Shown in pieces: positions 2,994 to 62,220 of a stretch of DNA of 64,000 nt. A program made the translations under genes and the position numbers. The stretch is taken from contig JAEUKI010000056.1 of the NCBI GenBank assembly GCA_016793325.1, forward strand, positions 4,221 through 68,220, read 5' to 3'. The notes below the pieces were generated by a model. It was not told the origin of the DNA, ran no database searches, and was given only the letters and a program-made list of their open reading frames with translations. The stretch's first letter is position 1; each line of letters begins with the position of its first letter. This DNA comes from Myxococcales bacterium. Its GTDB lineage: Bacteria; Myxococcota_A; Polyangia; Polyangiales; Ga0077539.

Positions 2994-4730
2994 ATGCTCC
3001 CTGCGCGTCCGAGAGTCTCGGTCAATCTTCGGCCCGGCGTGATCACGCCCGGAAGCGCGTTCGACGCGCTCGTTCGTCTCGATTCGCGCCGCGTGATCCC
3101 GGTGAAGCGCGTCGACTGTCGGCTCCGCGGCGAGGTGCTCGTCATGCAGGCCAACGGGATGTTCGCGACCCAGCGCATCGTCGAGCTCGCGGCGTCAGCG
3201 ACGCCGAAGACGCTGCCGGCTGGACCCTCGGAGCTGCGCGTGCGCTTCGCGATCCCGCCCAGCGCGCCGCCTTCGTATCGAGGAACGACGATTCGCGCCG
3301 CGTATACGCTCACGGTCTACGTGGATATTCCCTGGTGGATCGACCGCGAGAGCACGTTCGTGATCCCCGTCAGCGCGCCGCCAGCGTCGGTGACGGACCG
3401 GGGCGCGAAGTCGTTCGCGCGCGTTCAGGACTCGGGCCTTCGAGTCGAGTGCGCGCTCGATCGAACGGTCGTCGCGCCCGGCGGAGTCCTCGCGGGACGA
3501 CTCGCGTTCTTCGGCGTCGAAGCGGCAGGCCTCCGCGCCGTTCGGGTTCGACTTCGCTGCCTCGAGCGCTGGGGCGCCGGCACAATCGACGGTCCCAACT
3601 ACCTCGTCGAGATCCCGATCGAGCGCCAGGTCGACGGCGATGCGCACACGTTTCGCATGCGGATCCCCGAGGACGCGGTGCCCGCGTTCGATACGCCGAC
3701 GGGGTGCATGTGGTGGCAGCTCGACGTCGAGGGCGACACGAAGGGCCGAGCCACCGCGACGCTGCTCGATGTCCCGATCCAGGTCGTCGCGCCCGAGACG
3801 AGCGGGCTCGATTTTTTCTCGGAGCTCCCGCTCATCGGCGACCAGCGTCGCGCCGAGATGCTCGCGCGGATCGCGCGCCGAACGGGGCTGCGTCACGAGG
3901 TCGAGACCGATCGACTCGTTGGGCAATTCGGCGGCGTTTCGCTCTCGATCGAGCGCGTCGCCGCGACCGGTCACAACCGCGTCGAGCTGCGATGGCGCCC
4001 GCTCGGGATCGCTCTCTCCGTCGGCCCCGCGCGGTGGAACGACGCGATCTCGCGCTACGAGATCACCGTGGGGTTGCCGATGTTCGACGAGGCGTACCAG
4101 GTTCGCGGGCGAGAAGCGCGGCAGGTCCTCGCGGTCGTGACGCCGTTTGCGCACGCCGACGGGCTTCTTCACAGCCTTCGAAACTGCGCGATCCGCGACG
4201 ACGGAGCGTCATTGGTCGCTCCATCGCAGCCCGACGAAGAGTCGTTGATGCGGCTCGCGTACAGCGCAGCGAGCCTCGCGGAGCGAGTGCGCATCGGCAT
4301 CGAAGGGATGCCGCCGCCGCAGCACTTCGCGGAGCACGCGGATGCGTGGCGCTCGCTCGCGGGGCGGTTTCGTGGGCAATTTCGCCAGGGAGACTGCGCG
4401 ATGCACCGCCTCGAGCTCTTCAACGAACGGCTCGACGTCGAGCACGTGTGGGACGACGCGAGGGTGCGCGAGACCATCGTGCGAGCGCACTTCGACCCGC
4501 CGCTCGAAGCGCCGCCGGACCGATCGCGCCCCGAGTCCGTCCGCGCGGATTGGCGCGAGGCGCTCGACGCCCTCGACGCGCAGGGAGGTCGCTGGAGCGT
4601 GACGAAGACCGCGCTCGAAGTGCGAGTCGCGGCCGTGCGCGACGCGGTCGACGCCGAGCGCTGGATCGACGTCGTCGCGTCGACGGCCCGCACGCTTCAG
4701 GGCCGCCGCAACACAGGTCCATTTCGCTGA
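2994..4730 (+). CDS. Hypothetical protein (578 aa), two-domain, possibly arrestin-like/Spo0M-like
   Basis: Long ORF with a coherent, non-Arg-biased composition and no competing frame. No recognisable catalytic motif. Confidence 0.55.
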   Translation: MLPARPRVSVNLRPGVITPGSAFDALVRLDSRRVIPVKRVDCRLRGEVLVMQANGMFATQRIVELAASATPKTLPAGPSELRVRFAIPPSAPPSYRGTTIRAAYTLTVYVDIPWWIDRESTFVIPVSAPPASVTDRGAKSFARVQDSGLRVECALDRTVVAPGGVLAGRLAFFGVEAAGLRAVRVRLRCLERWGAGTIDGPNYLVEIPIERQVDGDAHTFRMRIPEDAVPAFDTPTGCMWWQLDVEGDTKGRATATLLDVPIQVVAPETSGLDFFSELPLIGDQRRAEMLARIARRTGLRHEVETDRLVGQFGGVSLSIERVAATGHNRVELRWRPLGIALSVGPARWNDAISRYEITVGLPMFDEAYQVRGREARQVLAVVTPFAHADGLLHSLRNCAIRDDGASLVAPSQPDEESLMRLAYSAASLAERVRIGIEGMPPPQHFAEHADAWRSLAGRFRGQFRQGDCAMHRLELFNERLDVEHVWDDARVRETIVRAHFDPPLEAPPDRSRPESVRADWREALDALDAQGGRWSVTKTALEVRVAAVRDAVDAERWIDVVASTARTLQGRRNTGPFR

Positions 4731-30736: not shown

Positions 30737-33265
30737 ATGAACGAGAGGGATATCAGCCGAGAGCGCGTACGAGAGAGGGATCTCGTGCTCGCCCCCAACG
30801 AGTTCGCGTTCATCTCCGACGAGACGAAGGGAAACATCAACGTCTACGTCGGCCCCCACAAAACAAGCCTCGCGAACACCGATCAGCCCGTGGTGTTCGA
30901 CTACGAGACCAAGCGCTTCAAGCGCGTCACGCTCGAGCAAGCGATCGGCGTGCTCGCGGTCGCGCCCGAGGGCTGGTATCTCGTGCTCAAGAACCCCGCG
31001 CGAGACAGCTCGCACCCGAGGACGGGCGCGCTCAACAACCTCCCCGAGCTCGACGTCGGTCGAAAAGTGAACACGCCCGGCCCGGTGTCGTACGCGCTCT
31101 GGCCGGGGCAGATGGTGAAGGTCGTTCCGGGGCACAGCCTGCGGTCCAACCAGTACTTGCTCGTGCGCGTGTACGACGAGGAGGCCGCGAAGACGAACTG
31201 GGCGAAGGCGGTGATCAAGCGCCAGACCGCGCCAGGGACGGACCCCGTCGCAGAGGGCTCCGAGCAGGGCGTCTTCGATCCGAGCAAGAACGTGCCCGAG
31301 CTCACGATGGGCAAGCACCTCGTGATCCGCGGGACGGACGTGTCGTTCTACATTCCTCCGACGGGCGTCGAGGTCGTCGCGGACGAGCAGGGCAAGTACG
31401 TCCGCGACGCGGCGACGCTCGAGCGGCTCGAGTACACGATCCTGCTCGATGAGGACGGAAACAAGCGGTTCATTCAGGGTCCCGCGGTCGTGTTTCCGAG
31501 GCCGACCGAGACGTTCATCGAGCGCAACGGGAGCCGAAAGTTTCGTGCGATCGAGCTGACCGAGATCGCCGGCGTCTACGTGAAGGTCATCGCGCCCTAC
31601 GAAGAGAACGGCCGCGCGTACAAGGTCGGCGACGAGCTGTTCATCACGGGCCGCGAGCAGATGATCTACTTCCCTCGCCCCGAGCACGCGCTCATTCGCT
31701 ACGGCGGACGCGAGATCCACTATGGCATCGCGATCCCTGCCGGCGAAGCGCGGTACGTCCTCGACCGCACCCAGGGAAACATTCGCCTCGAGCGCGGACC
31801 GACGGTGTTTCTCCCGGACCCGCGCCGCGAGGTGATCGTCCGCAAGGTGCTCGATCCCAAGACGGTCGACCTGTTGTTTCCCGGCAACAAGGACGCGCTC
31901 GAGTACAACGCGAGGCTGTCGGCGCTCAAGCGCTCGGAGGCCGGCAACGAGTTCGTGATCGACGACGAAGCGCGGCAGGTCGCGCAGCGCTCGCGCGACA
32001 TGGCCGCGCCCGAGAAGAGCAAGGCAGAGGCCGCGTTCGTCGGCGACGCCGTCACACGAAATCAAACGTTCACCCCGCCGCGGACGATCGTCCTCGACAA
32101 TCGCTTCGAGGGAGCCGTCTCGATCGACCTGTGGACGGGCTACGCGGTCCTCGTGAAATCCCGCTCGGGAAAGCGACGCGTCGAGGTCGGCCCCACGGTG
32201 TTTCTGCTCGAGTACGACGAGAACCTCCAGGCGATGGAGCTCTCGACGGGCACGCCCAAGTCCGACGACAAGGTCATGCGCACCGCGTACCTGCGCGTGA
32301 AGAACAACAAAGTGAGCGACCTCGTCGAGGCCGAGACGTCGGACCTCGTCCGAGTCCACATGCGCCTCTCGTATCGGGTCGACTTCGAGGGCGACGCGTC
32401 GCAGTGGTTCGGCGTCGAAAACTACGTCAAATTCCTCACCGATCACCTGCGGTCGCTCTTGCGTCACGCGGTCAAGCAGCACGGCGTCGAGCCGTTCTAC
32501 GGCAACGCGGTGAGCATCATCCGCGACGTGATCCTCGGCCCGCAGGGCGAAGACGGAAAGCGACCCGGCCGGCGCTTCACCGAGAACGGGATGCGCGTCT
32601 ACGACGTCGAGGTGCTCGGCGTCTCGATCGGCGACGAGGCCATCGCGAAGCTCCTCGTCGAAGCGCAGCACGCGTCCGTGCAGCAAGCGCTCGCGGTCGC
32701 GAGCGAGCGACGGCGCCTCGAGCTCACGCGAGCCCGTGAGTCCGCGCGGCAAGAGTCTGCGGCGCTCGAGTCGCAGACCAAAGTGCAGCTCCTCGAGATC
32801 GAAGGGCGCGAGGTCGAGCGCAAGCACGCCGTCGAGCTCGCGCGGATCAAGGCCGAGTCCGACACGCGCGAAAACCGCCACAAAGCCGAGGTTGCGCTTC
32901 AGTCGTTGCTCGACGCGGTGTCCGCGGCGCAGCTCGCGCGCGAGCGAGCGCGGGCGCAGTTCGACGACGAGGTCGCGCGGGCCGAGCTCGATCGAACGGT
33001 GCGCGAGCTCGACGCGCAAGTGCGCGCGACGGCGGAGAAAGCCAAGGCGTTTACGCCCGATCTCGTGGCGGCGCTGCAGGCGTTCGGCGATCGCGCGCTC
33101 GCGGCGAAGATGGCCGAGAGCATGGCCCCGCTCGCGATCCTCGGCGGAGAGAGCGTGGCGGACGTCCTGCGTCGGCTGCTCGAAGGGACGTCGGTCGCCG
33201 ATGTCCTCGCGAAGGTCACCGCGAAATCCGAGGCTCGCGCGTTGCCCGAGGGCTCGAACTCGTAG
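30737..33265 (+). CDS. Major vault protein (MVP)-like protein: N-terminal MVP repeats + shoulder (SPFH-like) + long C-terminal coiled coil
   Basis: Strong SD aaggagg before ATG. At least 5 tandem ~55-aa repeats with the MVP-repeat GP core (VYVGPHKTSL; NTPGPVSYALWPGQMV cf. MVP GPxSFxLxPGE; IQGPAVVFPRP; ERGPTVFLPDP; EVGPTVFLLEY). ~150-aa heptad-rich cap-helix-like C-terminus. Size 842 aa (MVP ~850-900 aa). Confidence 0.75.
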   Translation: MNERDISRERVRERDLVLAPNEFAFISDETKGNINVYVGPHKTSLANTDQPVVFDYETKRFKRVTLEQAIGVLAVAPEGWYLVLKNPARDSSHPRTGALNNLPELDVGRKVNTPGPVSYALWPGQMVKVVPGHSLRSNQYLLVRVYDEEAAKTNWAKAVIKRQTAPGTDPVAEGSEQGVFDPSKNVPELTMGKHLVIRGTDVSFYIPPTGVEVVADEQGKYVRDAATLERLEYTILLDEDGNKRFIQGPAVVFPRPTETFIERNGSRKFRAIELTEIAGVYVKVIAPYEENGRAYKVGDELFITGREQMIYFPRPEHALIRYGGREIHYGIAIPAGEARYVLDRTQGNIRLERGPTVFLPDPRREVIVRKVLDPKTVDLLFPGNKDALEYNARLSALKRSEAGNEFVIDDEARQVAQRSRDMAAPEKSKAEAAFVGDAVTRNQTFTPPRTIVLDNRFEGAVSIDLWTGYAVLVKSRSGKRRVEVGPTVFLLEYDENLQAMELSTGTPKSDDKVMRTAYLRVKNNKVSDLVEAETSDLVRVHMRLSYRVDFEGDASQWFGVENYVKFLTDHLRSLLRHAVKQHGVEPFYGNAVSIIRDVILGPQGEDGKRPGRRFTENGMRVYDVEVLGVSIGDEAIAKLLVEAQHASVQQALAVASERRRLELTRARESARQESAALESQTKVQLLEIEGREVERKHAVELARIKAESDTRENRHKAEVALQSLLDAVSAAQLARERARAQFDDEVARAELDRTVRELDAQVRATAEKAKAFTPDLVAALQAFGDRALAAKMAESMAPLAILGGESVADVLRRLLEGTSVADVLAKVTAKSEARALPEGSNS

Positions 33266-40450: not shown

Positions 40451-41164
40451 ATGACCACGCAACGAACCTTCGCGGCCCGATGGCTCGGTCGCGTCCCGTA
40501 CGAGCGCGCGACGGCGCTGCAGCTCGAGCACTTCGAGCGCCGAAAGCGCGGCGAAGGCACGGACACGCTCCTCTTGCTCGAGCACGACCCGGTCCTCACG
40601 CTCGGTCGCAGCGCAGACGGGTCGAACGTCGTGATCAGCGACGAAGAGCGCCTCGCGCGCGGCGTAGACCTCGTCTCGACGACGCGCGGCGGGGACGTGA
40701 CCTACCACGGCCCGGGGCAGCTCGTGGCGTATCCGATCTTCGATCTACGGCCGGATCGATGCGACGTTCGAAAATATGTGCGCGACCTCGTCGAGGTGAT
40801 GTCTCGGCTGTGCGCGGACTTCGGCGTCGGCGCAGGGCCGCACTCGAACATGATCGGCGCGTGGGTCGACCTCGACGCGCCCCGCGACAAGTGGCCCGGC
40901 GACGCGGCCGCGAAGCACCCTGCGAAGATCGGCGCGATCGGCGTGAAGATCTCGCGCTGGATCACGATGCACGGCTTCGCGCTCAACGTCCGGACGAAGC
41001 TCGATGACTTCGCCATGATCGTCCCGTGCGGAATCGCCGAGCACCCAGTGTGCTCGCTCGAGTCCATCGGCGTGAGTGACGCGCCGGGACTCGCCTGGTT
41101 CGCTCGGCGCGCGGTGGGACACTTCGAAGACGTCTTCTCGGCGCGCTGCGTCGATGGTCCATGA
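40451..41164 (+). CDS. lipB: Lipoyl(octanoyl) transferase
   Basis: Start MTTQRTF. LipB motifs (RWLGRVPYERA, HDPVLTLGR, GGDVTYHGPGQLVAYPI, KIGAIGVKISRWITMHGFALNV with catalytic Cys region PCGI). Confidence 0.85.
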   Translation: MTTQRTFAARWLGRVPYERATALQLEHFERRKRGEGTDTLLLLEHDPVLTLGRSADGSNVVISDEERLARGVDLVSTTRGGDVTYHGPGQLVAYPIFDLRPDRCDVRKYVRDLVEVMSRLCADFGVGAGPHSNMIGAWVDLDAPRDKWPGDAAAKHPAKIGAIGVKISRWITMHGFALNVRTKLDDFAMIVPCGIAEHPVCSLESIGVSDAPGLAWFARRAVGHFEDVFSARCVDGP

Positions 41165-42660
41165 CCGCGATCGATCGCGACGATCCTCGGGACGATCTCG
41201 ACGCGCTCGAACGACGCGCGCTCGACGACCGCGACGCGCTCGAAGCGCTGCTCGTTCGGTGCGCCGCGATCGCCCGTGAATCGCACCTGTTTTCGCCGGA
41301 CCCCGACGCCTTCGCGCGGTGCGGTCGCGCGATCGAGCTCTTCGACCTCGCCTCGCTCGACGGCGCCCCGCTCGGTGAGCGCTCGCGCGAAGCGGTCGCG
41401 CAACTCTCGAGCGCACTCGGTCGTCGCGCCCTCGCTGATGGTGCCCCCGAGCTCGCGGTGACGCAGCTCGAACGCGCTCGGAGCGCAGCGCTGCGAGCGC
41501 CGAGCGAACGCGCGGTCGTGCTCCACGATCTCGCGCAGTGCTACGAAGTCCTCAGCGACGCGGCGACCGCGGAGGCTCGTTGGCGCGAGTGCCTCGATGC
41601 GTGCGCCGAGAGCGCGCCGTCGGTCGAGCGCGATTTCTACGAGCGGACGTCCGCCGAGCGGCTCGCGTCGAGCGCTCGATCGCGAAACGATCGCCTCGAG
41701 GCGCAGCGATTCGAGCGCATCGCGGACGCGTGCGACGACCGCGAGATCGAGCGCGAGGTCGCGCAAAACGCGGAAGCCGAGCGTTTTTTCAGCGCGGCGT
41801 GGGACGGGACAACGCCGCCACAGATCGCCCACGAGGCGCGGTGGATCGAGCGCTCGCAGGGCGTGGTTCACGCGACACGACCAAGCGAAGTCACGCGCGC
41901 CGAGGACCTCGTCGCGACCGTCGAGTGTCCGATCATCTTCGGTCCCGCGCGAGACGATCGCTGCCTATGCGGCGCGGTCGAGGGACGATCGCAGCGCGGC
42001 GTTGTGTGCGATCGGTGCGGCGTCGAAGTGCAGCGCGCGGCGCGGAGGCGAGCGCGGTTCGGGCACATCGAGCTCGCCGAGCGGCGCTTCCACCCGTGCG
42101 CGCTCGTCGACGGCGCGTTCGGCTCGCTCGTGTCGCTCGCGCTCGACCTCGACCCTGCGCGGCTGGCGTTGGTGCGCTCGCGCGCTCGGTGCATTCGCTA
42201 CCTCGCGCGCTCGCCGCGCGGGGTCGACACGTTGGCGCCGGACTCCGAAGAGCTCGCGGCGTTCGACGCGGGCCGAGGAGACCCAGCGTTCAACGTCGCG
42301 ACCGGCGACGAGGCGATCATGGACGCGCTCGCGTCGCTCGATGCCCGGGGCGCGCGTGACGAGGTGCAGCTCGAGCTTCGCGCGCTTCGCGCACACAAGA
42401 CCGCCCATCGAGCGGACGTTCGTTCGCGCGTCGATTGGCTCGCGGCGCGGGGCGAAGCGCTCGCGCTGCTCGAAGCGGGCGCGTCGCTGTTGATCGAGCG
42501 CGTTCCCGTGCTGTCGCAGCCGCGGCTCGCCGAGATGGGGCGCAGCGACGCGGTGACGCCATTGTACGAGGCGCTGCTCGGGGCCCAGAGCGGCCACGAA
42601 ATCGACGTCGCGCTCGCGGCGCTGGTGCGTGCGTTTGCAGCGACGCCAACACACGCGTGA
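41161..42660 (+). CDS. Hypothetical protein containing an RNA-polymerase beta-prime N-terminal zinc-ribbon (ZBD)-like segment; start overlaps lipB stop (ATGA)
   Basis: Residues ~250-310: AEDLVATVECPIIFGPARDDRCLCGAVEGRSQRGVVCDRCGVEVQRAARRRARFGHIELA. E. coli RpoC 58-105: [57 protein letters not shown]. Identical CxC-12-CxxC spacing. The rest of the protein is helical with no RNAP similarity. Confidence 0.65.
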   Translation: MTAIDRDDPRDDLDALERRALDDRDALEALLVRCAAIARESHLFSPDPDAFARCGRAIELFDLASLDGAPLGERSREAVAQLSSALGRRALADGAPELAVTQLERARSAALRAPSERAVVLHDLAQCYEVLSDAATAEARWRECLDACAESAPSVERDFYERTSAERLASSARSRNDRLEAQRFERIADACDDREIEREVAQNAEAERFFSAAWDGTTPPQIAHEARWIERSQGVVHATRPSEVTRAEDLVATVECPIIFGPARDDRCLCGAVEGRSQRGVVCDRCGVEVQRAARRRARFGHIELAERRFHPCALVDGAFGSLVSLALDLDPARLALVRSRARCIRYLARSPRGVDTLAPDSEELAAFDAGRGDPAFNVATGDEAIMDALASLDARGARDEVQLELRALRAHKTAHRADVRSRVDWLAARGEALALLEAGASLLIERVPVLSQPRLAEMGRSDAVTPLYEALLGAQSGHEIDVALAALVRAFAATPTHA

Positions 42661-43711
42661 CGGTGGGTGTCGCCGCACCGTTGTAGTGAAGGTCCATCGC
42701 GGCCCAGCCGTTAGCGCGGTCGGGTACGGCGATGTCGTCCGCGCCGTTCGATGGACATTGGCTGGCGTCGGCGTGAAGTCGTGACCTTGCGCGACGCGAC
42801 GCGATGACTAGTCTCCGAACCCATCGGTTCTGGTCACTCATCGAGGCGGTATCGCCGACGACGGAGCAGCCAAGAAGAGGCGCGGATCGGTGATCGAAGC
42901 CACCGATTCACGCGTCCCCGAAGCACGACAACCGCCGTCGACCACGGCCACTTTGAAGAGAGCGACCATGATCAATCGAAGCACCCTGGGTCGGACGAGC
43001 GCTGCTCGCCGACCCTCGGCGGAACACATTCGCGCTCCGCCCCGTTGAAGCAAACGCTAACTCGACGCTTCGGCGACGAGTCGTTCGTCACTGAATCGAA
43101 CCAACGACGACAGAGTTGCCCGCGACGAGCGGGCGCAGAAGGATTCGAGAGTACGGAGTCTGCACGAGCTACATGGGCCACACGATCGCTGCCGAGACGA
43201 CAGAGGGACTTCGCGCCCGACGTCGCGCGACGCAGAGAGCGTAAATGGTCAAAGGAGCAGTGGTTCATCTGGCGCAGAGCCAGCCACGCTCCGTCGGGCC
43301 GCGCGAGTTCGGCGACGTCTCCGGTGGGAGCAGTCGCGCGCGGGATTCGATGCCCTCCTTCAACCACCTTTTGGGCATCTTTGAATCACAAAAGCCCTAC
43401 CCCGACGCGCCGAACAATCGATGGACCTCCAACGCGCTCATTCTTCTGAACACACAACACGAAGATCGAACTCGCGCACGGCGCCCGCCAACTCCGACAT
43501 ATGGCTCTGATCGGAGAGCGGCGCCCGCGAGGGACGACTTCGACACGACGCGCAAGCGACTCGAGACACGACGACCGAGCCTCCCCCGCTCGGACGGCGG
43601 TTCGACGCGCTTCATCCCGTCGTCTGCCCTCCGAAACCGCGCGGATGTGCGTCCCCCACGGCGCGCGGCGTCGCGCAGGACCCACGAAGGCTGCGGTATA
43701 CAGACACGCCC

Positions 43712-46700
43712 GTGCAACGCTCGACTCTCGCTCCTGTGCTCAATGACGTCGGCCTCTGGCGTGCGCTCACAGAGCGCGATCGCGTGGAGTGCACGGACGA
43801 GCAGATCGCTGCGGCGTTCGACGCTGTCGCATCGCGGTCGGTGCGGCGACGCATCGCGCTGCTCGGGCTCGCTGCGACGGCGGCGATGACCCACCCGAGC
43901 GCGCTCGTTCGCGCCTCTGCCCATCGCGCGCTCATCGGCGCTCGTGGAACGCGCGCGCACGCCGCCATCGCCCGAGGCCTCGACGACGACGACGGCGCCG
44001 TCCGCCGCGCCGCGGTCGAATCGCTGCGCGCGCTCGCGAGCGCCGAACCCGAGCGGTGGATCCACGCCGTCGTGCACAGCCGAGCGGACGTTCGTGAGAT
44101 CGCCGTCGAGCTCGGGCCACCGCCGCGCGCCGAGGTGTTCGAACTCCCGTTGCTCGCGGACGAGGCGGCGCGCCCGAAGGTCCTGCCGCGCATCGAGCGC
44201 TGGGCCAAGGCGTCGACGTCGGTTCCCGCGTTCGCGGTCCCCGCGTTGCTCGACTCGACCGTGCGCGGATGGCTGCCGTTGTCGACGGCGCGAGCGATCA
44301 TCGACCGCGTTCCGACGGATCGATTGGGCCAGTGGCTGTTCGACCAAGCCGGACGAGGGCACCTCACCGATCCCGCCGAAGTCGCAGCGACCAACGCCGA
44401 CTCGACAGACCCGCTCGACGCGCTGCTCGAGCTCGAGTGGTCCCGTGAAGCGCCCACGAAGATTCCGTCCGACGCCCTGTGGTGGAAGTTGATCGGCCCC
44501 GTCGCCGATCAGTTCGACCAACTTCGACTGCGCTTCGCCGCGTCTGCGTGGGCGCTCGCGAAGCGCAAGGGCTACTGGTCCGCCTCGGGCCTCGCGGCGT
44601 GCGTGCTCTTTGCGCCGCAGTCGCTGCGCGGCGTCGAGATCCCTCCCGATTTCGTCGAGACCATCGTCGCCGCGAGCGTTCACGCGCAGCAGGCCTCGAT
44701 TCTGCTCGCGACGCGGCCTTCGATCGAGCGCATCGACGCGATTCGCGCCAAGCGCTCGACGCTCGATCGAGACGAAGTGCTCGCGGTCGCGATCGCGGCG
44801 ACGATGCAGCCGGGCTCTCGCTTCGAGGTGGCCTTGCACGCGCTCGGTCGAGATCGCCTCGTCGACGCGGTCGTTGCGTTTCCACGAGCGGCTGCGCTGC
44901 TGTTCGTCGATCCGGCGAGCTCGCTGGGAGCGTGCATCGATGTGCTCGATCTCGCGCGAGCGCGCTCGCCCGAGGCGGTCACCGAGCTCGCAGACCGCCT
45001 GTTGACCCTCGGCGGCGTCGAGCCCTTCTCAGTCTTCGACCTCGTCGGTCCGAGCGCTTCGCACGCGGCGCTGAAAGCCCACTGCGAGCGGCTCGCGCCG
45101 ACCCATCGGTCCATCGACCCACGAATTCAACTATGCCGTTCGATCGCAGGCGAAGCGCTCCCGACGCTGCTCGACGCGATCTTGTCTCGGCCCGACGTCG
45201 ACCCGCTGTTGCTTCGCTGGCTGCTCGCGGCGCTCGAGACCGAGCCGTGCGACGCGCTCGCGGCGTACATCACGCGCCGCGCCGCGCCCAACACACGCGC
45301 GATGCGCGCGCTCCTCGCGGCGATCGAGTCCTCGCATGCGCCCGCGGTCGCGCTCGCGCGCGTCGCGCAGAGCGCGGTCGAAGAGCGCGTCGCCCGAGCC
45401 GATCCAGCCCGAGAGCGCGCCGACGAGGCGATCGAACCGCCCGCAGCGACGGTCCCGGCTGTTGTCTCGGCGCCCGATGTCGCGCCGCCGGACGGGCAAG
45501 CGCTCGACGACTTGACCTACGTCTCGGATGAAGAGCTCGAAGATTTGGTCAAGCCATTCTTGCGCTGGCCGGTCACGGGCGTCGCCGCTGCGCTCGAGCT
45601 CCGAGAGTCACCTTCGCCCAACCCGTGGCTGTGCGCTGCGCTTCTGCGCGCGCACGACGCCGCTGAGCACGTCGCTCGCGTGCTCGCGACGTTTTGGCCG
45701 ACGGACCCCGAGACGCTCGCGACGCTCGACGAGCTCGTGGCCTCCAAGCTCGGGGCCTTCGATGACCTCGGGATGCTCGCGTCCGCGTGGCTCTTTCGCT
45801 GGGAGAAACACGCGCGGCGCTTCGTCGAGCTCGCCACGCAGTCCGGGTCGCTCGCGCAGGTGCTCGCCACGGTCGATCGATGGCCCGAGCCCCTCGCGGC
45901 TCGCGCGTGGAGCGCCGCCGCGCGCGTGCTCGAGACCACGGCGGCCCGCGGCGGGTCCGACGCCGTGAGCCCCGAGCTGTGGACGCCGATCGCGCGACTT
46001 GCGATCGACGAGATGTCCGGAGACGACGTTCCGCTCGTGCGAGACGAAGCGGCGCGATTTCTCGCGGCCGCGTCTCGAGCGCCGGCGTCGCGCGCGATCA
46101 TCGAGCCGCTCCGCGCCGACGCCACCGCGCTCCGTCCGTCGCTGAGCGCAGAGCGATCCGCGCTGCTCGGCGCCTGGCTCGATCGCGTCGCGACCGAGCG
46201 CCGTCCGCTCGCGACCGAGATCCTCGCGCGTCGACAACAACTCGAGAAGCTCCGACACGGACCGAAAGAAGCTGCGGCCGAGCTCGTCGCCGAGCTCGCG
46301 ACGTCCGCCGACGGTCGAGCGCTGATCTTGTACGCGCTCGAGCAAGAGCCGCGACCGCGCGCGTTCGACGAGCTCAACGCGGAGGTCGCGCGATGGCGGG
46401 GCGCGCTCGCGGCGAAGGTCGACGAGGTCCTCGCCACGAGGCCCGTGGCGCTCGCGGTCGACGTCGAGCTCGCCCGCGCGAAAGCGGGAGATCCCGACGC
46501 GTGGGCGCGCGCCGCGAAGCGCCTCTTCGAGTGCGACGAGCTCGTCGACGCGCGAACGATTCACGCGGTAGCGAGCGACGAAGCGCAGCGCAGCGAGCTC
46601 GCGTTCGCGTGGCTCGACGCGCGCTCTGCGTCCGTGCGGCACTGGGCGATCGAGCAGGCGCTCGTGTACGGGGACGTCGCGGGCAGCGCGCTCTCGACGC

Positions 46701-48793
46701 CCGAGCGCGCGCCGCTCGTGATCGCGAAGGTCGAGGCGCTCTTGTTCGATCTCGGGCCGAGCAAGGACGAGCTGCGACGGCGCGCCGCGCGCTGGCTGTG
46801 GCTGCGAGGGATCACGACGGGCTTCGTCCTGCTCGCGCAACACCAGATCAACGCGCCTCCCGGCGCGCCCGACTGGATCGCGACGGCGACGGACACGCAG
46901 CTCGAATCGCTCGTCGACGCGGCGATGACCGCGGGAAACTCCGTGCTGCCAGAGACGTGGATCGTCGATCTCTTGCGCGCTCCATCGATCGGGTTGCTCG
47001 TCGCGGTCGACGCCTGGTCAGCGCTGTTGCAGTGGGCGAGCACCGCGCCTTCGCGGCAGGCGGCGATCAACGAGCTCAATCGCGTGCGTCTCTTTCGCGG
47101 AGCGCGCGCGGCGAAGCTCCGCGCGGTCGCGCGGGTGTTCGCGTGGGGCGTCGAGGTGGGCCTGGTGCTCACGGGCCGCGCGATGAGCGTGCAGCTCGCG
47201 CGCGATCAAGCGCTCGGGTATACGCGGCTCGACGAGGACCGAGTGTTCGTGAGCGCGCTGCCGCTGTTGCGCGGCGAGCGCTTCGGCCGCGCCGTGGTCG
47301 AAGGGCTCTTGCTCCACGAGTTTGGACACCATCGATATCACCGCGGCGACGAGCAGCGCGCCGCGTGGGATCAGGGCTTTCGCGAGGGAATCGGCCCGTT
47401 GCTCAACCTCGTCGCCGACGAGCACCTCGAGCGCAACTTGCGCGCGCTCGACACCGAGTACGGCGATCGACTGAAGCGGCTCGACTCCTATGCGTTTCAG
47501 CACATGAGTCGGCCGCTCGCCGTGGCGACGCTGTTCGAGGTGTTGCGAGGCGATTTGCTGTCAGTGCTCACGTCGACCGAGCTCCTCTTCGCGCAGGATC
47601 CCGCGAGCGTGGTGCTCGAGCACGGGCGACTCTTGCAAGCGCTCGAGCGCTCGGGATCGAGCTTCGCTCGGTGGGTGCGCGCGCTGCGGATGGGGCTCGG
47701 CGACCGGCACGGCGACGAGAAGGTGTCTCGCGCGCTGGCGCTGTTTTCGGGGACGAAGTTTCGCAAGAGCACCATGGGCGAGTTGCTCGAGATCGCGCGA
47801 AAGGTCCGGGCGATCTTCGGCGACGAGTGCCGCCTTCTCAACGTCGTCGCGTCGCACGAGGACGTCGGTCACGGCGAAGAGGGCGAGCTCGATCGCTTGG
47901 GCGAAGGGATCTCGGACGAAGAGATTCGCCGTGAAGTCGACCGCATCACCAACCCGCGCAAGAGCGACGACGACGGGCTGAGCACCATGCGGCCCGGCGG
48001 AAAGCGCTGGCTCAACGTCACCGAGGGAACGGACTTCGACCTGATCACCCAGGTCGTTCGCGTGAAGTACGAGCCGTCCAAGCACCGCGCGCTCTCCGAG
48101 CGCGTTCGACGCTCCGCAGGGACGCTTCGCTCGTACCTCGAGCGGCTGGGGCTGCACCTTCAGCCGCAGCGATTGCGACTGCGCGGCCGACGCGTGGACG
48201 CGCCGCGGACGCGCGCGCTCGTCACGCGGGGAGACCCTCGCGTGCTCATCGCGCGCGAGATCCAGATCAAGACGGACCTCTTCATCGGCGTGGTGATCGA
48301 CTGCTCGGGCTCGATGGCTGGCGGCGAGAACATGCCGCGCGCCAGGCTCTTCGGCGCGCTGATCGCCGAGGCTGCGCGCGCGATGCCCGGCGTCGACGTT
48401 CGGATCTTCGGCTTCACCGATCGCGTGATCTACGACGCAGGAGACTCGACGCACCCCGCGGTGCACGCGCTCGAAGCGGGCGGAGGCAACAACGACTCGG
48501 GCGCGCTCTGGCACGCGGCGAACGTCGCGCGTGCGTCGAATCGGCGAGCAAAATTGCTGGTGATGATCTCCGATGGGCTCCCCACCGAGTGCTCCGCAGC
48601 GTCGCTCAAGCACCTCGCCGTCGAGCTCACGCGCCGACACAAGATGTGCTGCGCGCAGATCGCAGTGCAGCCCCTGCCCGAGGTGCTCTTTCCGAACTAT
48701 GTCGAGTGCGACGGGCCGGACACGGACGTGGTGGTCAAGCGCTTCGGGCGCATCATCGAGGGGCTGGTGAAGCGGGCGATGGGCGTTCCATAG
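43712..48793 (+). CDS. Giant (1693 aa) HEAT/PBS-lyase-repeat protein with C-terminal zincin-like HExxH module and von Willebrand factor A (vWA, MIDAS-complete) domain
   Basis: GTG start. N-terminal HEAT-like repeats (DDDGAVRRAAVESLRALAS; SRADVREIAVELG). Helical solenoid body. HEFGHH motif at ~aa 1200 with downstream ADEHLE. C-terminal vWA with DCSGSMAG...ISDGLPTE (DxSxS..T..D MIDAS). Confidence 0.75.
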   Translation: MQRSTLAPVLNDVGLWRALTERDRVECTDEQIAAAFDAVASRSVRRRIALLGLAATAAMTHPSALVRASAHRALIGARGTRAHAAIARGLDDDDGAVRRAAVESLRALASAEPERWIHAVVHSRADVREIAVELGPPPRAEVFELPLLADEAARPKVLPRIERWAKASTSVPAFAVPALLDSTVRGWLPLSTARAIIDRVPTDRLGQWLFDQAGRGHLTDPAEVAATNADSTDPLDALLELEWSREAPTKIPSDALWWKLIGPVADQFDQLRLRFAASAWALAKRKGYWSASGLAACVLFAPQSLRGVEIPPDFVETIVAASVHAQQASILLATRPSIERIDAIRAKRSTLDRDEVLAVAIAATMQPGSRFEVALHALGRDRLVDAVVAFPRAAALLFVDPASSLGACIDVLDLARARSPEAVTELADRLLTLGGVEPFSVFDLVGPSASHAALKAHCERLAPTHRSIDPRIQLCRSIAGEALPTLLDAILSRPDVDPLLLRWLLAALETEPCDALAAYITRRAAPNTRAMRALLAAIESSHAPAVALARVAQSAVEERVARADPARERADEAIEPPAATVPAVVSAPDVAPPDGQALDDLTYVSDEELEDLVKPFLRWPVTGVAAALELRESPSPNPWLCAALLRAHDAAEHVARVLATFWPTDPETLATLDELVASKLGAFDDLGMLASAWLFRWEKHARRFVELATQSGSLAQVLATVDRWPEPLAARAWSAAARVLETTAARGGSDAVSPELWTPIARLAIDEMSGDDVPLVRDEAARFLAAASRAPASRAIIEPLRADATALRPSLSAERSALLGAWLDRVATERRPLATEILARRQQLEKLRHGPKEAAAELVAELATSADGRALILYALEQEPRPRAFDELNAEVARWRGALAAKVDEVLATRPVALAVDVELARAKAGDPDAWARAAKRLFECDELVDARTIHAVASDEAQRSELAFAWLDARSASVRHWAIEQALVYGDVAGSALSTPERAPLVIAKVEALLFDLGPSKDELRRRAARWLWLRGITTGFVLLAQHQINAPPGAPDWIATATDTQLESLVDAAMTAGNSVLPETWIVDLLRAPSIGLLVAVDAWSALLQWASTAPSRQAAINELNRVRLFRGARAAKLRAVARVFAWGVEVGLVLTGRAMSVQLARDQALGYTRLDEDRVFVSALPLLRGERFGRAVVEGLLLHEFGHHRYHRGDEQRAAWDQGFREGIGPLLNLVADEHLERNLRALDTEYGDRLKRLDSYAFQHMSRPLAVATLFEVLRGDLLSVLTSTELLFAQDPASVVLEHGRLLQALERSGSSFARWVRALRMGLGDRHGDEKVSRALALFSGTKFRKSTMGELLEIARKVRAIFGDECRLLNVVASHEDVGHGEEGELDRLGEGISDEEIRREVDRITNPRKSDDDGLSTMRPGGKRWLNVTEGTDFDLITQVVRVKYEPSKHRALSERVRRSAGTLRSYLERLGLHLQPQRLRLRGRRVDAPRTRALVTRGDPRVLIAREIQIKTDLFIGVVIDCSGSMAGGENMPRARLFGALIAEAARAMPGVDVRIFGFTDRVIYDAGDSTHPAVHALEAGGGNNDSGALWHAANVARASNRRAKLLVMISDGLPTECSAASLKHLAVELTRRHKMCCAQIAVQPLPEVLFPNYVECDGPDTDVVVKRFGRIIEGLVKRAMGVP

Positions 48794-61101: not shown

Positions 61102-62079
61102 TCACGCTCGCCGGGGAGCCACGCCGGTTCGCCGGCGAAATGCCCGCGCAAACGCGCTCGAATCCGCGAAACCTACGCTGCGCGCGACCTCGCCCACCGA
61201 GCGCGCGCGATCACCGAGCAGCTCGCTGGCCCGCTCGGCGCGAAGCTCGTCGCGCAGCGCGCGGAGGGACGTGCGCTCGGCCTCGAGTCGGCGTCGGAGC
61301 GTTCGCTCGCTCATGTGCAGCCTCGACGCGACGTCGTTCGTGCTCCAACGTTGGTCGAGAGACGAGCCGATCACCTCGCGAACGCGCTGCGCGAAGGATC
61401 GAACCGCGCCGAGCGTGGCGAGCTCTGCGTCGAGGTGCGCCGCGAGCAACCGCGTCATCGCGGCGTTTTCGAGCGGCGGCCGCGCGGCGAGGCCGTCTCG
61501 ATCGAGCACGAGCTCTGTGCGGCGAGCGTCCCATTCGAGCGCGCAGTCGAGCCGCGCCGCGAGGTCGTTCGCGTATCTCGGGCGCGCGTGCGCGAATCGA
61601 ACGCGCGTGGGTCCGACGCCGACCACGCGTCGCAAGCCGACGCACACGTGCGCGAGCATCGCTTCGATCGACGCGCACTCGCCGAACGTCGAGGGGTCGG
61701 GGCCCGAGTACCGAACGATCGCGTGCTCCCGCTCGTGCGCGAGCGACCACCGCGCGGCCTCGTTGATGATGGGGTACGCGCGGATTGCAGAGGCGAGCGA
61801 GTGCGCGCCGGTGGGCGCGGTGAGCACGGCGAAGCCGTAGGGACCCAGCGACTCGAGCGCGAGCGCTTCGGCGACGGCGACGGGCCACGCGGAGGCTTGC
61901 CGCGCAGCGAGCGACCACACGCGGTGAAGCACAGGAACCGGGACGCGCTCGAGACGCGCGAGCTCGTTCCACTCGACGCGGGCGCGACGTGCGAAGCGCG
62001 CGGGCGCTTCACCGACACGCGTGGCGCACGTCGTGACGATGTGTCGAATGGCGTCGGTTCGAGCGGTGGGAGCGTTCAT
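61102..62079 (-). CDS. AraC-family transcriptional regulator
   Basis: Start MNAPTART (verified). C-terminal AraC HTH (WSTNDVASRLHMSERTLRRRL...VGEVARSVGFADSSAFARAFRRRTGVAPR). Confidence 0.75.
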   Translation of the reverse strand: MNAPTARTDAIRHIVTTCATRVGEAPARFARRARVEWNELARLERVPVPVLHRVWSLAARQASAWPVAVAEALALESLGPYGFAVLTAPTGAHSLASAIRAYPIINEAARWSLAHEREHAIVRYSGPDPSTFGECASIEAMLAHVCVGLRRVVGVGPTRVRFAHARPRYANDLAARLDCALEWDARRTELVLDRDGLAARPPLENAAMTRLLAAHLDAELATLGAVRSFAQRVREVIGSSLDQRWSTNDVASRLHMSERTLRRRLEAERTSLRALRDELRAERASELLGDRARSVGEVARSVGFADSSAFARAFRRRTGVAPRRA

Positions 62080-62220
62080 CGCGGCGGCTGCACTTCGAGC
62101 GTCGGGGCGGACGCGAGCGTGGTCGTAGCACGTGGCCGTTCGCGCACGAAACGTTGGCCGGTCGAGCACGGTCGCCGAACGGCGCCGGGCGTACGCATCG
62201 CACCGGAGGTTCATTCATCC

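Follow-up and report, generated by a model that had tools for sequence, protein, structure and literature searches.

A conserved, covarying RNA element precedes a giant HEAT/vWA gene in Myxococcota

Introduction

Compact RNA folds held together by contacts between distant loops are familiar from riboswitches, the purine riboswitch having kissing P2 and P3 loops and the ZTP and fluoride riboswitches long-range pseudoknots, and bacterial Y RNAs are encoded beside Ro/Rsr. Other leaders are governed by peptides. The RAPP motif blocks peptide-bond formation, stalling ribosomes (PMC10951233); it is depleted in proteomes and enriched near the C-terminus of small upstream open reading frames (uORFs) that precede diverse genes (PMC12992588), and in the case of CruR such a uORF keeps Rho from terminating transcription before the downstream gene is reached (PMC9426467). 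Here, we describe the intergenic stretch that separates a gene for a 499-aa protein from a giant gene for a 1693-aa protein with HEAT repeats and a von Willebrand factor A (vWA) domain in a Myxococcales bacterium. The window, that is, the whole stretch of DNA analysed, comprises 64,000 nt of contig JAEUKI010000056.1 (assembly GCA_016793325.1). The intergenic stretch carries a covarying RNA of two adjacent hairpins and, upstream of it, a short uORF ending in RAPP.

The RNA resembles riboswitch aptamers in its compact covarying fold, invariant loop nucleotides, kissing helix, pseudoknot, sense orientation and association with one gene family, but it matches none of the 4227 families of Rfam and lies 200–330 nt from the start codon, which is unusually far. 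The locus also recalls the pairs formed by Ro60/Rsr with Y RNA and by TEP1 with vault RNA, as a structured RNA stands beside a helical-repeat protein with a vWA/metal ion-dependent adhesion site (MIDAS) domain and a major vault protein (MVP) homologue is encoded nearby. Unlike in those systems, the protein has no TROVE domain, its vWA domain is nearest to NorD and Rea1-MIDAS, and the RNA is not Y-like.

CruR of Bordetella pertussis (DUF2946) is likewise a small open reading frame (ORF) with RAPP near its stop, located upstream of a co-oriented gene and followed by a spacer open to Rho termination, to which a C-rich, G-poor tract corresponds here (PMC9426467). It differs in being a 145-aa exported protein with a copper-sensing CXXC motif, whereas the uORF described here encodes 17–42 aa without signal peptide or Cys motif, and here the gene starts 663 nt downstream with a structured RNA in between. 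ApdA, ApdP, ApcA and SecM share the R-A-P-P core (R-A-G-P in SecM) and the conservation of the preceding residues (PMC7897499, PMC10951233, PMC10987492). However, these peptides have an N-terminal transmembrane segment or signal and monitor Sec/YidC upstream of secA, secDF and yidC, whereas the present uORF lacks both and precedes a gene for a NorD/CobT-like vWA protein.

Methods

The loci syntenic with the window were those of a 97%-identical strain (L008, L009) and L003, L004, L005 and L001; L004 and L007 are one sequence, L006 lies on the contig of L001, and L002 shares the L001 sequence there. Neighbouring proteins are 59% (L003), 56% (L004), 38–39% (L005) and 40% (L001) identical to those of the window. 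Loci from other genomic contexts were L010, L011, L012 and L013/L014. Alignment A3 comprises the five syntenic orthologues, A4 is a MAFFT alignment of seven copies of the RNA (five syntenic plus L010 and L011), and a nine-sequence alignment adds L012 and L013 to these seven. A covariance model, R1, was built from the seven copies and run over 174 kb of sequence. The promoter scan was based on the E. coli consensus.

Results

A covarying RNA with two predicted tertiary helices

The RNA motif consists of two adjacent hairpins with 27 bp in total, as obtained with RNAalifold from the structure-blind alignment A4 (Table 1). Compensatory double changes affect 13 of the 27 pairs with seven sequences and 15 with nine; 94.6% of the cells are paired in the seven-sequence set, and the observed values were reached by none of 500 column shuffles. 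When the partners were slid by 1–3 columns as a control, only 0–3 compensatory pairs were counted. The copy of the window, folded alone, has the same structure as its minimum-energy fold (−41.5 kcal/mol, z = −2.5). Helices 1 and 2 of hairpin 1 are 96–100% paired, with five to six compensatory pairs, and in hairpin 2 the compensatory pairs number 8–9 of 12, L011 and L013 building the same helices from other sequences. In our judgement, the structure is very probably real. Read on the plus strand, G.U pairs exceed A.C pairs by about 9 to 2, and this strand is favoured as the RNA because the G.U pairs that are frequent there would be A.C mismatches on the other.

The two hairpins can be joined by a kissing helix, formable in all nine sequences, with a compensatory change in L012 (GAUGG/CCAUC) and one G.U pair in L010. 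Because four of its five pairs are invariant, its covariation is confined to a single position. A second helix would join the asymmetric bulge of hairpin 1 to the 3' tail; across the nine sequences it is paired in 54 of 54 cells, with two-sided changes at three of the six pairs. Judged from dinucleotide shuffles, an exact complement would turn up by chance in the 150 nt downstream with a frequency of 0.02, 0.10, 0.06 and 0.08 in the four divergent lineages, and a complement of the bulge is absent from the 150 nt upstream in every sequence. Both the predicted secondary and tertiary pairings are supported by covariation, and, judged from these comparisons, the whole fold is a double pseudoknot of ~120 nt. 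A further closing stem, P0 (GUCGGG 43293-98/CCCGAC 43401-06; CGGAUG/CAUCCG in L011), is plausible in some copies, proved unalignable and is not claimed.

Table 1. Features of the intergenic stretch and base pairings of the RNA; positions are those of the window, and functional assignments are putative.
Feature	Position	Strand	Description
Whole intergenic leader	42661–43711	+	Between the 499-aa gene and the 1693-aa HEAT/vWA gene; limits set by the ORFs
GGACAT	42753–42758	−	ATGTCC on the minus strand; aligns with a K+ channel start codon; invariant in five orthologues (A3)
Promoter-/operator-like block	42785–42814	+	CCTTGCG, 16-nt spacer, CTAGTCT
−35-like hexamer	42787–92	+	TTGCGC
−10-like hexamer	42809–14	+	TAGTCT, within the palindrome GACTAGTC
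Shine-Dalgarno-like sequence	42956–42962	+	AAGAGAG, purine-rich, 5 nt before the uORF ATG
uORF1	42968–43048	+	26 codons and TGA, MINRSTLGRTSAARRPSAEHIRAPPR; ends in RAPP (residues 22–25)
Hairpin after the uORF	43060–43081	+	ACUCGACGC-UUCG-GCGACGAGU; 12 nt past the uORF stop
Conserved block 3	43118–43169	+	Predicted hairpin GCCCGC/GCGGGC, then GCGCAGAAGGAUUCGAGAG...GCAC; five syntenic orthologues, hairpins predicted
RNA hairpin 1	43299–43343	+	Stems P1, P1b, P1c (MAFFT A4 and RNAalifold)
P1	43299-305/43337-343	+	
P1b	43313-316/43333-336	+	
P1c	43319-321/43328-330	+	
Bulge of hairpin 1	43306-312	+	7 nt, asymmetric
Apical sequence of hairpin 1	43323-327	+	GGUGG
RNA hairpin 2	43344–43387	+	Stems P2a, P2b; 17-nt loop with ACCACC (43363-368)
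P2a	43344-348/43383-387	+	
P2b	43349-355/43373-379	+	
Bulge of hairpin 2	43380-382	+	UUU, between P2a and P2b
Loop-loop (kissing) helix	43323–43368	+	GGUGG (43323-327) with CCACC (43364-368)
Second pseudoknot (bulge-tail)	43307–43415	+	GUUCGG (43307-312) with CCGAAC (43410-415) in the 3' tail
Bulge-tail pair, window, L003, L005			GUUCGG/CCGAAC
Bulge-tail pair, L004			GUUCGG/CCGGAC, one G.U
Bulge-tail pair, L001			GUUCGG/CCGAGC, one G.U
Bulge-tail pair, L011			GUACGG/CCGUAC
Bulge-tail pair, L010, L013			GCACGA/UCGUGC
Bulge-tail pair, L012			GCACGG/CCGUGC
C-rich, G-poor tract	43390–43530	+	Directly after the RNA; includes conserved block E (43401–43451)
Conserved GGUAUACA	43697–43714	+	TATACA (43697-702), 9 nt before the GTG start (43712-714)

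At gathering thresholds, no Rfam family matched anywhere in the window, as the Rfam/Infernal scan proposed in the preliminary description turned out; at E values up to 10, the segment 42300–44100 gave only chance-level scores of 16–17 bits, none of them on the motif. The L013 copy was compared with the same 4227 families and has no match either. The earlier suggestion of an unannotated non-coding RNA holds solely in that no Rfam family matches.

Hairpin 2 was considered as an intrinsic terminator and rejected, since its UUU is a bulge inside a longer stem, with covariation in the GAUUC/GAAUC pairs beside it; between 42000 and 44500, the plus strand has no predicted intrinsic terminator. A GGGAG sequence within the motif is followed by no start codon. 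In most copies, UCGAUGG or UCGAYNG occurs 2 nt past the pseudoknot partner (43420–43445 and equivalents), followed in the window clade by GGACCUCC, which holds an anti-Shine-Dalgarno-like CCUCC. The AUG of this element is not conserved in L001, L010 and L011.

The RNA accompanies the HEAT/vWA gene family

Two loci, L012 and L013/L014, were chosen solely because they encode other members of the HEAT/vWA family, and they had not been used to build R1. The model found the RNA in both, at 3691–3793 of L013/L014 (49.8 bits, E 1e-8) and at 486–586 of L012 (44.6 bits, E 1e-7); apart from these and the training copies, the best score in the 174 kb was ~18 bits. One of these loci encodes an 893-aa version of the protein and the other, L012, a giant version. 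The giant gene of L012 is split by gene callers, and two minus-strand calls (484–1745) overlap its plus-strand N-terminal part. By tblastn, the N-terminus of this protein is located at 1035–1958 on the plus strand; the minus-strand calls are probably spurious and lie over a frameshifted or fragmented gene.

In all nine distinct family loci examined, which span five or more lineages and four genomic contexts, the RNA is on the strand of the gene and ~200–330 nt before its start codon. The motif is single-copy in the window. Because the RNA accompanies the gene family at every locus examined, it most likely controls the downstream gene, the presumed means being a small ligand or a protein that it binds. 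A pattern scan of viral contigs for the motif gave one chance match inside an ORF that the covariance model did not confirm. In the literature, no motif described near vWA or MoxR genes, or in Myxococcota, was found. Among the explanations offered in the preliminary description, that of a long structured 5' leader or regulatory RNA is thus the one borne out, by a covarying, pseudoknotted RNA that is on the strand of the gene and travels with the family into other contexts.

Conservation of the leader

A comparison with related genomes, as the preliminary description had advised, shows conservation: relative to L003, the stretch is 80% identical over 725 nt (42735–43451), with a near-invariant block of ~150 nt, and the RNA motif is ~98% identical, the adjoining coding sequence reaching 65% as a whole and 52% at its third codon positions. 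In L001, an 85-nt core is 87% identical although the flanking proteins are only 40% identical. The 97%-identical strain differs at 33 positions of the stretch and at none within 43293–43389, and the differences at 43292 and 43390 exactly flank this segment. The gap itself is kept in every syntenic locus, measuring 934–1051 nt in close relatives; in L001, 837 nt of leader are left by the called gene start. On this comparative evidence, the stretch is under strong purifying selection.

A minus-strand gene for an IRK-type K+ channel (IRK, Ion_trans_2) is located between the 499-aa gene and the leader in L001 (9659–10573) and, judged from the alignment, in L005. It is absent in the clade of the window, where only a block aligned with its start codon is retained (~42661–42760), and the GGACAT within it may possibly be a weak vestige of the channel gene. 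A further remnant of the channel was sought with its protein by tblastn, which found nothing in the stretch past the start-codon block.

Composition and coding potential

The gap of 1051 nt extends from the TGA of the 499-aa gene, which ends at 42660, to the earliest possible start of the giant gene, the GTG at 43712; the GenBank annotation is blank between the two genes (JNK05_22455 and JNK05_22460). A lower-GC stretch of ~1 kb upstream of the giant gene had been described, and its GC content is indeed 0.645, compared with 0.685 for the window, which places it at the 2.6th percentile among 1051-nt windows. The lowest 150-nt value, 0.56, falls at 43320–43500. Windowed analyses of GC content and coding signal, also proposed there, agree in that the dip is present and most of the stretch is devoid of three-base periodicity.

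As an island, however, the stretch is not distinctive. Equal or lower values occur at ~29.3–31.8 kb and ~59.3–61.2 kb, both coding with a GC content at third codon positions (GC3) of ~0.88. Coding DNA here has GC3 of ~0.85 and GC2 of ~0.5, DNA without codon pressure lies at ~0.62–0.65, and the orthologous gaps of relatives are 2.4–4.3 points below their own loci. A foreign or special origin is not needed to explain the low GC, because non-coding DNA beside genes with GC3 of ~0.85 looks so, and a dip like this is normal for the non-coding DNA of this genome. By a crude GC3-based gene map, the stretch is the sole gap of at least 1 kb in the window without a coding-like ORF; the statement that every other spacer is below 250 bp was inexact, since the same map gives spacers of ~380–560 nt at 39.9, 54.2, 57.0 and 62.2 kb.

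The preliminary description had also found no credible ORF in the stretch. This holds for long ORFs, but the conserved 26-codon RAPP uORF was overlooked. A Pfam search of all ORFs of the stretch (up to 214 aa) gave zero matches. Dedicated searches of the stretch for tRNA, tmRNA, repeats, tandem arrays and mobile-element ends were empty, in line with the earlier inspection by eye, which had detected neither a tRNA cloverleaf nor a repeat array.

A conserved uORF ending in RAPP

The uORF is on the strand of the giant gene, and an AAGGA stands at a distance similar to that of the Shine-Dalgarno-like sequence of the window in L005 and L001. Its ATG is invariant and its frame open throughout the five syntenic orthologues and the 97%-identical strain, although the distance from ATG to RAPP is 12, 21, 22 or 24 codons; the indels (27 nt, 6 nt) are all multiples of 3. 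E-x-I-R-A-P-P is present in 5/5 orthologues. Within its six conserved codons (E, I, R, A, P, P), every third position has synonymous substitutions and the 12 first and second positions are constant, a pattern with a probability of ~5e-5 for a given frame. RAPP is followed by one residue in the window clade and by 14–16 residues in L001 and L005. Scanning the substitutions for 3-nt periodicity in sliding windows gave no signal and was uninformative, and the uORF has no Pfam or NCBIfam match. A stall, if it occurs, would be expected to hold Pro24 (43037-39) in the P site, with Pro25 (43040-42) in the A site. Upstream of the motif in L010–L013, a RAPP uORF with a conserved ATG was not found, only unanchored RAPP or RGPP strings.

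Other elements of the leader

The block at 42785–42814 has invariant hexamer-like parts and a variable spacer in the five syntenic orthologues. Its pattern occurs once in the window, where 0.01 occurrences are expected, once in each syntenic locus, and nowhere in L010–L014. It is ~480 nt upstream of the RNA and was not called by the promoter scan. We infer that this block may act as a promoter.

Between the uORF and the RNA, the hairpin at 43060–43081 reappears with CGCCAC/GUGGUG in L003 and CGCCGC/GCGGCG in L004 (RNAalifold, three sequences, hence weak), and block 3 was not found in L010–L014. In the C-rich tract, C minus G in 60-nt windows is +0.17 to +0.33 in five orthologues, the 95th percentile of the window being +0.13; the tract is a possible Rho-loading (rut-like) region. 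Just before the giant gene, GGUAUACA is kept in the window, L003 and L004, and L011 and L013 have TATAGT and TATGAT ahead of the start; a proximal −10 element and an initiation region rich in A/U are possible roles.

The giant gene and its neighbours

The giant protein (MBL8681947.1) has HEAT repeats, an HExxH motif and a C-terminal vWA domain, HEAT and VWA being its only Pfam matches. Nearly 200 homologues match its C-terminal 543 aa (47162–48790; HExxH region and vWA) at E <= 1e-5; most are 600–900 aa long, and those that are named belong mainly to Myxococcota, Planctomycetota and Acidobacteriota. For the HExxH/vWA region, no sequence relative in the PDB, NCBIfam family or PADLOC family was found. 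A MoxR-type AAA+ gene directly follows the vWA gene in L010, L011 and L013 (three contexts); in the window, the genes after the giant gene are rplY (L25) and pth.

When the 893-aa member was modelled with AlphaFold (mean predicted local distance difference test score, pLDDT, of 86), the best Foldseek matches of the model were NorD and Rea1-MIDAS, Ro60 being missing from the top 50. No TROVE domain was found by Pfam, and a TROVE/Ro60-like protein is unsupported on these two grounds. The model would place the family with the MoxR-partner MIDAS proteins. NorD works with the MoxR ATPase NorQ as its vWA partner, and MoxR-partner MIDAS proteins act in metal-cofactor insertion or remodelling. Because the protein groups with them, a metal or cofactor is our first guess for an effector of the RNA, which is speculation.

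The 499-aa protein (41161–42660, plus strand) is 100% identical to JNK05_22455, a hypothetical protein of a Myxococcales metagenome-assembled genome. Its residues ~253–419 resemble the zinc-binding/clamp N-terminus of RNA polymerase beta' (TIGR02386 40–200, E 7.5e-16), and it could be an RNA polymerase-fragment mimic or decoy. Full-length relatives were seen in only a handful of Myxococcales/Polyangiales metagenome-assembled genomes, and a pattern scan of genome contigs with the 499-aa protein matched no relatives.

Further upstream, an 842-aa MVP homologue is encoded at 30737–33265 on the plus strand (MVP_shoulder E 4.9e-26, Vault_3 E 4e-8). The gene has syntenic counterparts in L001 and the P0003 contig, and the ORF after it, of 584 aa, has no family match. 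The only tRNA of the window is a tRNA-Thr (GGT) at 61580–61652 on the minus strand, and the ORF drawn by the crude GC3 map at 61102–62214 (minus) is doubtful because it crosses this tRNA.

Discussion

The comparative data are best accommodated if the RNA acts in cis on the vWA gene, which we consider fairly likely; with slightly less assurance, we take the whole stretch to be a cis-regulatory 5' leader of the giant gene, read on the plus strand. That the uORF is translated and stalls ribosomes seems to us only a little more probable than the contrary. The RNA would be the ancestral, family-wide part of the system, and the uORF and the promoter-like block would be additions specific to one clade. 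In the clade of the window, a transcript begun near 42820 would have its uORF translated up to a stall at RAPP, and the double-pseudoknot RNA would fold, perhaps around a small ligand or a protein. On the outcome would depend whether RNA polymerase gets past the rut-like tract and enters the 5-kb gene, and the output would be control of premature Rho-dependent termination in the C-rich tract, as for CruR. Rho-dependent attenuation as the output is a possibility to which we give distinctly less than even weight. Somewhat more doubtful still is the idea of a new riboswitch class or another ligand-responsive or catalytic RNA that senses a metal or cofactor for NorD/CobT-like MIDAS proteins and is joined in one clade with a signal-less RAPP uORF, the two gating transcription jointly. 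The transcription start, ribosome stalling, involvement of Rho and nature of the ligand are all points that we infer.

Several observations weigh against regulation in cis by a leader of this kind. The source is a metagenome-assembled genome, and both the transcription start and co-transcription with the gene are deduced from sequence. The RNA is 200–330 nt from the start codon, and no conserved expression platform was found. The C-rich tract is missing in L011 and L013. A TATA-like element 9–45 nt before the start codon is conserved in several lineages and may be the promoter of the gene itself, in which case the RNA would be on a separate upstream transcript. The comparisons comprise nine distinct sequences from ~5 lineages, alignment A5 was fitted to the model, and the partners of the bulge-tail helix in four divergent lineages were picked by complementarity. 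Other points concern the uORF. RAPP occurs 24 times in the six-frame translation of the 64 kb; taken alone it means little, and the evidence for the uORF is its conservation pattern. The uORF peptides are short and Arg-rich, without signal peptide, transmembrane segment or hydrophobic stretch. Finally, the uORF and promoter-like block are confined to the syntenic clade, and for that reason they stand outside any universal mechanism.

Alternatively, the leader might work through RNA structure alone, with the uORF untranslated or its RAPP incidental and its conservation due to a function of the RNA or DNA. The frequency of chance RAPP strings, the weak Shine-Dalgarno-like sequence, the lack of a signal peptide and the absence of sliding-window periodicity all agree with this, as does the retention of the RNA motif in L010–L013, where the uORF is absent. 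We nevertheless consider it unlikely, as variation in the conserved codons is restricted to third positions, the ATG is invariant, and the frame stays open over four ORF lengths with indels of whole codons only.

A little less likely again is that the RNA is the product of a separate small RNA gene, acting in trans or serving as an RNA partner of the HEAT/vWA protein in the manner of a Y RNA. The RNA always adjoins a protein with an alpha-solenoid and a vWA domain, no expression platform was recognized, the TATA-like element just before the gene could be a promoter of its own, and the MVP homologue is encoded 10 kb upstream in the syntenic clade. Yet no promoter-like site directly precedes the motif and no terminator directly follows it, and in the window clade the conservation around it runs unbroken for 725 nt, the uORF included. 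The protein, moreover, is not TROVE-like (HEAT and VWA in Pfam, with NorD and Rea1-MIDAS as best structural matches), and no Y RNA family of Rfam matches.

An ordinary protein gene hidden in the stretch (ORF 43245–43889, ORF 43045–43449 or a gene broken by frameshifts) is highly improbable. A local GC3-like signal at 43230–43440 is in the frame of ORF 43245, and read in this frame some third-position differences of the motif would leave the amino acid unchanged; in L003 and L005, moreover, a single frame, broken by one TGA, takes in the uORF, block 3 and the motif. A small protein in the frame of ORF 43245 (PREFGD-x-SGGSSRARD) was indeed entertained, with an in-frame ATG in two lineages and some synonymous changes, and later rejected: L004 has no start codon, the 97%-identical strain has ACG for ATG (T to C at 43246) and a 1-nt deletion at 43251, and L012 and L013 carry frame-breaking indels within the motif. 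A single long ORF with TGA read-through or selenocysteine was also discarded, as the frames of the blocks differ in the window, L004 and L001. No Pfam family matches, and compensatory base-pair changes account for the variation. Nucleotide identity of ~98% is also beyond what constraint on a protein alone would leave, because synonymous sites are saturated. Least credible is a functionless remnant of a decayed mobile element, as the preliminary description had envisaged, or of a lost gene, for although GC is below that of the surroundings and relatives carry an extra K+ channel gene here whose start-codon block survives, there are no repeats, inverted ends or transposase-like ORFs, the trace of the lost gene covers at most ~100 nt at the left edge, synteny is kept, and the idea is already contradicted by covariation and by a stretch better conserved than the flanking genes and under strong purifying selection.

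Returning to an RNA that acts in cis on the HEAT/vWA gene, the motif is a candidate new structured RNA with unusually good comparative support for so few sequences, covariation being seen in each of four stems and two tertiary helices, in a phylum poorly covered by surveys of non-coding RNA. Should the uORF stall ribosomes, RAPP-mediated regulation would extend to very short cytosolic peptides without a localization signal. The conserved upstream RNA offers an experimental entry point to a widespread HEAT/HExxH/vWA family, and the partner that binds the RNA probably reports what the protein and its MoxR partner handle.

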